From the NCBI RefSeq assembly GCF_038871235.1, contig NZ_JAVZIN010000011.1, positions 1 to 54,851 on the forward strand: a DNA stretch of 54,851 bases, read 5' to 3'. Under the pieces are notes generated by a model that worked only from the letters and a program-made list of their open reading frames with translations, searched no databases and had not been told where the DNA came from. This stretch comes from Candidatus Hadarchaeum sp. GTDB taxonomy: Archaea; Hadarchaeota; Hadarchaeia; Hadarchaeales; Hadarchaeaceae. The position numbers were made by a program, and so were the translations under genes. This document shows positions 32,938-34,156 of this stretch, in pieces; within the stretch, counting starts at the first letter, position 1; every line of letters begins with the position of its first letter.

Positions 32938-33043
32938 CTCCTCCGCAATGTTAATTAGTTAGAGTGAAGGCATTCTAGTTTTTAAACCTATTGTCAAATA
33001 CTCGGTGTTGATTTTTTTATTTTTAGTAGCAACATCTTTAGAG

Positions 33044-33435
33044 ATGATTCTATTGGGGCGCGACCATCAGCCAAAAATATCTGAACACCAAGGGGGCTGC
33101 TGGCGCTGTGGAGAGAAGCGCTGCTCGCTCAAGAGGTTTTGCGCATCAGGACTAGGAGCTGGAAAAATCGCCTAAAGCTGGACAGGTCCAAGGCCCACCC
33201 GGATCCGGTCTCGGCCATTGGATCTTACCTCCATCCACTTAGGGAAAAACAGGAGTTATCGTTTGGGACATAACTTATTGCAGGTCGAAAGAAGTCCAAG
33301 CGATAACGGTTTCAAGAAAATGGCTAGACGAGGAACTAAAGAGAAAACGCAATAGATCAAAGTATCGGATTCTTTTGAGGGCCAAAAAGACAGAATTACA
33401 TCCCGTCTTTCGGCTTTCGAAAAGATAGGTAAACG
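33044..33435 (+). pseudogene. Decayed pyrimidine-dimer DNA glycosylase-family gene
   Basis: Frameshifted translation gives 'KYLNTKG/LLALWREALLAQEVL...KLDRSKAHPDPVSAIGSYL...ITVS...ELHPVFRL', matching the family consensus 'HP.YLD.KGL.ALWRE.LLAQ.VL...HPQL.RF...HPLF'. Confidence 0.75.
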
Positions 33436-33482
33436 GGCGCACATCGGTTGATATTTTTGAACTTGGGGACAAAAATTATCAC

Positions 33483-33562
33483 GGCGGCGGAGACCAGCTA
33501 GCCCTGACTAGCGTTGGCTAACGCTGTGGACGATGGGCACACACTAACCGCCGCCTACACCA
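33483..33562 (+). ncRNA. Archaeal H/ACA pseudouridylation guide RNA (single hairpin with K-turn)
   Basis: Lower stem GGCGGCGG/CCGCCGCC, an internal pocket, upper stem GCCC-U-GA...GA-U-GGGC K-turn, and ACA at 33557-33559. TATA-like TTTTTGAA at 33454. Confidence 0.75.
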
Positions 33563-33604
33563 GAATGGCGATTTTTCGGTTAATTGCCAAAATGCCGGGA
33601 TTTG

Positions 33605-34156
33605 TCATAAAGGCAACAGTTCTCTCTTGTACACGTCTTTAAGTACCTCGGCGGCGGCCACGTAAATTGCGCTTGCCCCGCAGAAGATTCCTTCAATGCC
33701 TGCTATAGTTTTTAGTGCTCCGATGCCGCTGAGGTCGGCGGCGGCCAGCAGAAAGAAGAGGATGACCAAGGTCAGAAAAACTACCTGGAGCCCTTTACCC
33801 AGCTTCAACGTCCCAAGGAACAAGAACCCGCTGAAGATTCCCCACAGGATCAAGTAGGCAGCCATTGACCTTGGGTCCACAACGCTCGCCCAGCCCAAGG
33901 AAGGGAAAAGCAAAATTGCCACTAGGGAAATCCAAAACATCCCGTAGGAGAGGAAAGCCACCGTCCCAAAGGTGTTTCCTTTTTTGAACTCGAGGACACC
34001 GACGATCACCTGCGCTATACCTCCGTAAAATAAACCCATGGCAAATATTACACCCACGCCGCTCGAGGGCAGGATTCCGGCGTTGACCAGATTGAGCAAC
34101 ACCGTAGTCATACCGAATGCCATCAAGCCCAGCGGTGCAGGATTTGCGCTGGTCAC
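33605..34156 (-). CDS. satP: Acetate/succinate channel, GPR1/FUN34/YaaH (SatP) family
   Basis: 'ANPAPLGL.AFG.TT..L', 'FYGG..Q', 'GNTFG..AF..YG.FW'. May start at CTG 34186. Confidence 0.92.
   Translation of the reverse strand: MTSANPAPLGLMAFGMTTVLLNLVNAGILPSSGVGVIFAMGLFYGGIAQVIVGVLEFKKGNTFGTVAFLSYGMFWISLVAILLFPSLGWASVVDPRSMAAYLILWGIFSGFLFLGTLKLGKGLQVVFLTLVILFFLLAAADLSGIGALKTIAGIEGIFCGASAIYVAAAEVLKDVYKRELLPL

Follow-up and report, generated by a model that had tools for sequence, protein, structure and literature searches.

The 54,851-nucleotide (nt) stretch of DNA analysed here, referred to as the window, comes from Candidatus Hadarchaeum sp. and is part of a 1.2-Mb, 16-contig archaeal genome, labelled G000, that is 94.75% complete. 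Between an MFS transporter gene and a GPR1/FUN34/YaaH-family (SatP-like) gene, positions 33483-33559 of the forward strand hold what is very probably a gene for a box H/ACA guide small RNA (sRNA) of this Hadarchaeota-type archaeon, ~77 nt long and built as a single hairpin. The phylum Hadarchaeota is, to our knowledge, known only from metagenomes, and our literature searches returned no paper linking Hadarchaeota or Hadesarchaea with pseudouridine guides. An earlier interpretation of the DNA letters (the sequence-only reading) had placed such a guide here and proposed that it directs formation of pseudouridine at position 13 of tRNAs (Psi13). The 8-bp stem, internal loop, kink-turn (K-turn), apical hairpin and ACA box that it described are all present where it placed them, and C33542, from which it ran the 3' guide, does lie 15 nt before ACA. 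The features of the locus, from upstream to downstream, are:

33448..33462 (+): putative promoter, a TATA-like box rich in A/T (ttgatatttttgaac) that lies 21-35 nt upstream of where the RNA begins
33483..33490 (+): lower stem P1, 5' strand GGCGGCGG, pairing with 33548-33555 through 8 G-C pairs
33491..33500 (+): 5' loop strand of the pocket, 10 nt, AGACCAGCTA (in RNA letters AGACCAGCUA); the 5' guide is 33491-33498
33501..33504 (+): upper stem P2, 5' strand GCCC, pairing with GGGC at 33535-33538
33505..33507 (+): non-bulged K-turn strand, U33505 followed by G33506 and A33507 of the tandem sheared G.A pairs
33508..33528 (+): distal (canonical) stem of the K-turn with the apical hairpin; the closing pair C33508-G33528 is invariant
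33510..33525 (+): apical hairpin, AGCGTT (33510-33515), loop GGCT, AACGCT (33520-33525)
33529..33534 (+): bulged K-turn strand, 3-nt bulge GAC (33529-33531), then G33532, A33533 and U33534; GUG precedes the bulge
33535..33538 (+): upper stem P2, 3' strand GGGC
33539..33547 (+): 3' loop strand of the pocket, 9 nt, ACACACTAA (in RNA letters ACACACUAA); the 3' guide CACUAA is 33542-33547
33548..33555 (+): lower stem P1, 3' strand CCGCCGCC
33556..33559 (+): unpaired U33556, then the ACA box at 33557-33559
33572..33576 (+): run of five T, 13 nt past ACA; possible archaeal termination signal, with T runs also following several other copies of the RNA

The ~545 nt between the MFS transporter gene and the RNA (32938-33482) hold no open reading frame (ORF) longer than 65 amino acids and no Rfam match. 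The minimum-energy fold of the forward strand reproduced all three helices at -31.5 kcal/mol (z -2.2, with 4 of 200 shuffles as good). The minus strand folds comparably, at -34.5 kcal/mol (z -1.56), so the strand is not fixed by energy alone. The K-turn was assigned by sequence, from its tandem G.A/A.G pairs, 3-nt bulge and C-G-closed distal stem, and is a predicted L7Ae site. Genes for the partner proteins Cbf5 (452 bits), Nop10 (94 bits) and Gar1 (45 bits) are present in the genome. From these letters and their comparison with relatives, we infer the expression, protein binding, target and chemistry of the RNA.

To find copies of the RNA in related genomes, BLAST was used and identified the element in 7 relatives; a covariance model built from those copies found five more distant ones, and a second covariance model was run on all 65 genomes of the order. 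Copies were found in 15 of the 65, distributed over four genera: 6 of 8 genomes in g1 (G000 included), 4 of 14 in g8, 1 of 3 in g2 and 4 of 4 in g10. That second model found none among the 19 genomes of four other families. Reruns with laxer filters gave 0 of 6 in genus g9 and, in family f2, only matches with expect values (E) of 0.16-0.8, two of which were read and look like coding sequence. Four weak matches out of 17 (E 0.017-0.85, two antisense ones included) were excluded before alignment, leaving 13 copies; the copies of G065 and G068 were found later and enter none of the pair counts below.

Among the copies found by BLAST, near-identity extends from the first G of the lower stem through ACA, and the flanks diverge immediately outside. 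Across the 13-copy alignment 96.3% of cells are paired and 8 of 19 pairs have changed on both sides, counts that lean towards the structure, the alignment having been fitted to the model. None of 500 shuffles reached the real covariation value, and slid controls paired in only 24-64% of cells. The lower stem is paired in 100% of cells, with 4 of its 8 pairs changed on both sides, and is fully re-coded in g10 and g2 (GGGGCGA/UCGCCCC); the G065 copy adds a further exchange from G-C to A-U. In P2, GCC/GGC gives way to GCT/AGC, and the fourth pair is C-G or G-C in 8 of the 13 copies. The apical hairpin contributes three two-sided changes, with 91% of cells paired. What varies least is the K-turn, whose letters (N-G-A / G-G-A-N-G-A, with C-G as the closing pair) stay the same in all but one of the 15 copies: the bulged-strand pattern GGA-N-GA is the same in all 13 aligned copies, and the non-bulged-strand GA is kept in 14 of 15, G068 having AA. 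Three letters in each pocket strand (A33496, C33498 and U33499; A33541, A33543 and C33544) are invariant in all 15 copies. The ACA box is found in 11 of 15, comprising all 10 copies of g1 and g8 plus that of G008.

The G068 copy (L184, G068:C1:44476-44552, minus strand) stands apart: one K-turn G is replaced by A, so that GGAC reads GAAC, and its lower stem contains two A.C mismatches. Decay of this copy, or noise in the assembly, may be the reason.

In each of the 15 upstream regions an A/T-rich box stands ~21-35 nt ahead of the stem's first base, though the remainder of the flank diverges; the RNA appears to be transcribed from its own TATA-like promoter, as judged from these letters. The neighbouring genes are not the same from genus to genus. 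Those of G000 are given above; the RNA is flanked in G014 by an M24 peptidase gene and a prolyl-tRNA synthetase gene, and in G016 by a MetE-like gene and a family-B polymerase gene. Differing neighbours, together with the conserved K-turn and A/T box, rule out a gene-specific terminator or leader. The element is one conserved free-standing gene. In the g8 locus L046 (G014:C1:251437-254513) the RNA, at 1501-1577 on the minus strand, lies between the M24 (Xaa-Pro-type) peptidase and prolyl-tRNA synthetase genes, all on the same strand.

We next asked how closely the RNA follows the geometry of known guides. In productive archaeal H/ACA folds, as described in PMC4652768 and PMC2377435, the lower stem has 7-9 bp, the pocket-closing pair lies 14-15 nt from the ANA box and the upper GA stem counts 10 stacked layers. 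With the pocket closed at 33501-33538, as the sequence-only reading drew it, there are 18 nt to ACA and 6-7 layers, which is off these rules. A pair between G33497 and C33542 is possible in 13 of 13 copies (GC in 9, GU in 3 and AU in 1, with one two-sided change). Closing the pocket there leaves 14 nt to ACA (5 guide nt, 8 bp and one U), or 15 nt when counted from a 33498.33541 layer. In the free RNA, 33497-33500 may stack beneath the upper stem and form its base, with 33539-33541 facing 33498-33500 across the pocket. From 33497-33542 (or 33498.33541) to the G.A pairs there would then be 10-11 stacked layers, provided that three non-Watson-Crick layers stack, a count uncertain by one depending on which G.A pair ends it. 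With either closing the RNA would fit a '10/5/9' or '10/6/9' productive fold, and under both the model places the catalytic position next to C33542 or A33543, 14-15 nt from ACA. That is where the sequence-only reading had put the target, although for the pocket as it was drawn the distance is 18 nt.

Searches of Rfam placed the RNA in no existing family. No family reached its gathering score anywhere in the window, and none gave a credible match near the element at E up to 10; the sole match near it, at E=1, is noise. A box C/D reading was also considered and set aside: the CUGA at 33504-07 is CGGA in 11 of 15 copies, and reading the sequence revealed no C box. The genome was also searched for sister H/ACA RNAs with two descriptors, which returned 29 raw (13 distinct) and 17 matches, none of them convincing by eye except the element, although the second descriptor, which demanded 7 of 9 paired layers, missed the element itself. 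The class proposed by the sequence-only reading, an H/ACA guide with K-turn and ACA, is well supported by the anatomy, the 15 copies and the covariation of the stems (8 two-sided pair changes; 0/500 shuffles), the last of which it had suggested looking for in related genomes. We are therefore confident, though short of certain, that the RNA represents a new family of box H/ACA guide sRNAs from Hadarchaeota.

The closest known relatives in design are the euryarchaeal single-hairpin H/ACA sRNAs (Pyrococcus Pab21, Pab91, Pab160 and Pab19; Rfam HgcE, HgcF and HgcG). Like them, the RNA has an internal-loop pocket and a K-turn in the upper stem, and with the pocket closed at 33497-33542 or 33498.33541 it would also have 14-15 nt from the top of the pocket to ACA and ~10 layers to the G.A pairs. 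An 8-bp lower stem with one unpaired U before ACA is likewise described for Pa40.1 (PMC4652768). It differs from the euryarchaeal RNAs in three respects. It has no sequence or covariance-model match to any Rfam family; its loop, as drawn, is 10 x 9 nt and needs stacked C.A, U.C and A.A layers to obey the rulers; and no rRNA target was found for it.

What, then, might the RNA guide? In the mechanism we consider, the two loop strands would pair with a substrate and one uridine, 15 nt upstream of ACA, would enter the Cbf5 active site to be converted to pseudouridine. The most likely substrates would be tRNAs with the D-arm U8-G-G-(U/G)-G-U13-A14-G15, namely those for His, Glu, Pro, Trp and Asp. 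Positions 33542-33546 would pair with G12-U8, leaving U13 (with A14 and perhaps G15) unpaired, and 33498 or 33497 down to 33491 would pair with the D-loop from G15 or C16 through G18, G19 and U20, with U17a bulged. Psi13 would thereby be supplied in a lineage without the protein-only enzyme TruD/Pus7.

We searched for targets among the small-subunit (SSU) and large-subunit (LSU) rRNAs and 35 tRNAs of G000, of which 34 were found by Rfam model and one is an intron-bearing tRNA-Trp. This last gene (G000:C4:29585-29746) escaped the Rfam tRNA scan and was recovered by BLAST with a relative's sequence; its long intron carries motifs resembling box C/D (GAUGAUGA, CUGA). When one mismatch was allowed (scheme 1), the top sites were U13 of the two tRNA-Glu, a score matched by 7 of 150 shuffled guides. 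When one target bulge was allowed (scheme 2), all six top sites were tRNA D-arms, with 9 of 60 shuffled guides as good. Under a strict geometry (scheme 3: 3' helix from 33542 or 33543, spacer UN or UNN, 5' helix from 33498-33496), the seven top sites of the 15 that passed were U13 of tRNA-His, two tRNA-Glu, three tRNA-Pro and tRNA-Trp, with scores of 25-22 against 19 for the best rRNA site, and 29 of 300 shuffled guides did as well. The eighth site was U38 of tRNA-Pro(GGG). The two looser schemes agree with this order of sites. These seven top tRNAs are not independent of one another. Their U13 sites have ~11-12 pairs, of which 4-5 bp lie on the 3' guide and 6-8 on the 5' guide, with one mismatch or a bulged U17a. 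Over all of its 10 nt the 5' loop strand can pair with tRNA-Pro 13-20b (10 pairs, with U17a bulged), a match reached on tRNAs by 9 of 200 shuffles, whereas its best rRNA match was reached by 73 of 200. By these sequence scores, U13 of the His, Glu, Pro, Trp and Asp tRNAs is the best-scoring site class in the genome.

Several rRNA and other sites were examined and rejected. The LSU site at ~429 (UUGGUG-ccuga-AGCUGG) offers 6+6 bp in G000, with 9 of 100 shuffles as good, but G003, G014 and G016 have lost the U or the complementarity, and the guides of g10 misfit. At the LSU helix-97 loop, ~2795 (CUGGU-UUACC-GGUUG), G008 has an A opposite guide C33545, and G029 and G023 are without the U. SSU ~1068 has UUAGU-U but no 5'-guide helix, and fails in g10. 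A joint rRNA scan of G000, G002, G003, G014 and G016, each with its own guide, gave no consistent site. Genome-wide matches at C6:11102 (an unassigned open frame), C8:22287 (cbiQ-like), C8:24003 (nikR) and C14:15348 (antisense to an ORF) are all in or antisense to protein genes, and the nikR site is not kept in G002. The LSU match of G002 (L168, G002:C52:1411-5262) is 3852 nt long, compared with about 3050 in relatives, a difference suggestive of an intron or insertion in its 23S gene.

The enzyme expected to make Psi13 was sought with a six-frame Pfam search for TruD/Pus7 (PF01142), a check that the sequence-only reading had recommended. Not one of the 56 genomes searched within the order (G000 and 55 others) gave a match, compared with 4 of 5 genomes outside the order; among 14 control genomes 7 matched, including all 4 archaeal ones. 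Despite this, the U13 tRNAs retain the Pus7 consensus R-G-U-N-U-A-R, as given in PMC2651775. Some differences between copies also go in the direction expected of a guide and its target. The 5' strand in g10 reads ...CCAAGCUG, and its extra A pairs with U17a, absorbing the bulge; the g10 guide makes 9 contiguous pairs with tRNA-Pro of G029 and 8 with tRNA-Trp of G016. In the g10 3' guide, a change of U33545 to C turns the wobble with G9 into a Watson-Crick pair. In G004, the 5' strand has a single change, G33497 to A, and it is matched by a change of C16 to U16 in the D-loop of its tRNA-Pro(UGG).

RNA-guided modification of tRNA sites associated with Pus7 has a precedent. The Sulfolobales H/ACA guides Sso1/sR115 and sR435 are reported to act on U35 of pre-tRNA-Tyr and U38 of tRNA-Pro through 8-11-bp duplexes in which bulges and mismatches are tolerated (PMC2651775, PMC11077068), and Psi13 of S. 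islandicus is attributed to aPus7 in PMC11077068. There, as we propose here, an H/ACA small ribonucleoprotein (sRNP) takes over a site otherwise made by or expected of Pus7. The difference is that the Sulfolobales guides act on the anticodon loop in hosts that keep a Psi13-making aPus7, whereas here U13 in the D-arm is proposed from sequence and TruD/Pus7 was not found. TruD/Pus7 itself would act on the nucleotide and tRNA set proposed for this RNA, but as a protein-only Psi13 synthase without a guide.

Guide-dependent Psi13 is compatible with the H/ACA rulers and the order-wide lack of TruD and is the single best concrete hypothesis, one we hold tentatively. We put the probability that the RNA is an H/ACA guide and also targets tRNA U13 at about 0.4. 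In its more specific form, part of a Hadarchaeota family without TruD/Pus7 would use one H/ACA sRNP with a loose, consensus-like pocket to modify U13 of a set of tRNAs (His, Glu, Asp, Pro and Trp), which we regard as possible but less than an even bet.

A considerable body of observations weighs against a U13 target. The sequence-only reading had staked Psi13 on a tRNA carrying its predicted target, TTAGTGTNGCTGGTCT (UUAGUG-U-N-GCUGGUCU), and this is absent from the genome; the nearest matches differ at 2 of the 15 positions specified, all of them outside RNA genes. By that reading's own yardstick the absence counts against Psi13. Nor does the full-pocket target UUAGUGUGU-UN-UAGCUGGUCU have a match in any RNA gene of the genome. 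In 12 genomes examined there was no clean tRNA complementarity, a mismatch or bulge being needed every time, and shuffled guides match the top score in roughly 5-15% of trials. Individual substitutions break the proposed pairing: A33546 to C (G002, G004) disrupts the pair with the universal U8, C33494 to G (G014) that with the universal G19, A33497 of G004 leaves C16 of that genome's tRNA-His without a partner, and the invariant A33543 mismatches G11 of tRNA-Pro. The double change in G004 is equally explained by an intramolecular A33497-U33542 pair, with no target needed. When G014 and G016 were scanned with their own guides, tRNA U13 was not clearly first and 30 of 60 and 22 of 60 shuffles did as well, with only 1 and 2 tRNAs supplied, respectively. 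The RNA was found in only 15 of 65 genomes though the lack of TruD and the tRNAs are order-wide, and most TruD-less relatives are without it; tRNA-Glu(UUC) is 100% identical in G015, which has no copy, and 96-97% identical in other families. The D-arm is folded and buried in the mature tRNA. Four copies, those of g10, have UCA in place of ACA. Of the Psi13 proposal, then, U13 as the top site class and the missing TruD/Pus7 stand, while the exact target is gone, the statistics are weak and the comparative signals mixed.

A genuine H/ACA guide with another substrate is a serious contender, if also somewhat short of an even chance. It could act on a uridine of rRNA or another stable RNA through short, irregular pairing, or be an orphan or multi-target guide; one variant, with the pocket closed at 33497-33542, would have the guides AGACCA and ACUAA and the target UUAGU-U-N-UGGUCU. 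Most characterised archaeal H/ACA guides act on rRNA, and real duplexes go down to 6-11 bp with irregularities, many predictions failing (PMC11077068). The 33497-33542 pair that is possible in every aligned copy would make a textbook 6/5 pocket, the tRNA matches are no better than those of the 5-15% of shuffles noted above, and a weak site in the LSU helix-97 loop is present in all LSU copies read. However, no rRNA site scores well or holds across the five genomes of the joint scan, and the LSU-429 and helix-97 sites are lost in several relatives. The 6/5 pocket has perfect matches only in two mRNAs (cbiQ-like and nikR), near the ~0.6 expected by chance, and the second of these is the one lost in G002.

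We consider it unlikely that the RNA binds L7Ae through its K-turn without guiding, whether as a former guide now in decay or as a regulatory or chaperone RNA whose pairing partners are tRNA D-loops or the anticodon arm of tRNA-Pro. Such a role would account for the complementarity of the 5' strand, which covers U13 and A14 and leaves no unpaired target. In G016 all 10 nt of the 5' strand CCCCAAGCUG (copy L049:1501-1576) are Watson-Crick complementary to the anticodon stem and loop (positions 28-37) of the genome's own tRNA-Pro(GGG) (L259, G016:C4:69025-69099), with no 3'-guide helix alongside; AGCUUGG occurs both in the D-loop and in the anticodon arm of this tRNA. The UCA of the four g10 copies, the lost K-turn G and two lower-stem mismatches of the G068 copy, and the prolyl-tRNA synthetase gene next to the g8 RNA point the same way, although this last adjacency, given the tRNA-Pro complementarity, is possibly a coincidence. 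Set against this, the full H/ACA architecture, including the spacing to ACA and to the K-turn, is kept in four genera, ACA itself is retained by 11 of 15 copies, and among accepted archaeal H/ACA(-like) RNAs there are NCA and CCA variants (PMC4652768); a non-guiding RNA of this kind fits no known class. That there is no RNA gene at all, only a chance GC-rich hairpin or a terminator or 3'-untranslated-region hairpin of the minus-strand SatP-like gene (33605-34156), is very improbable. The minus strand does fold about as well and has TTTTT after the hairpin, but the loops and K-turn are conserved while the flanks diverge, the stems covary, the neighbouring genes vary between genera, and ACA and the K-turn are meaningful on the forward strand only.

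The RNA adds an H/ACA guide family from Hadarchaeota and offers a test of whether RNA-guided pseudouridylation can replace a protein-only Psi13 enzyme. If the U13 proposal is false, what is left is an orphan guide whose pocket is unusually wide, and it would still help to refine the rules of target prediction. If it is true, this would be the first RNA-guided modification of a tRNA D-arm, extending the reach of H/ACA guides from anticodon loops to the folded D-arm. It would also be a second, independent instance in which guide machinery has taken over work of Pus7, and would show in what way a lineage makes up for losing a tRNA-modification enzyme that is widely conserved.

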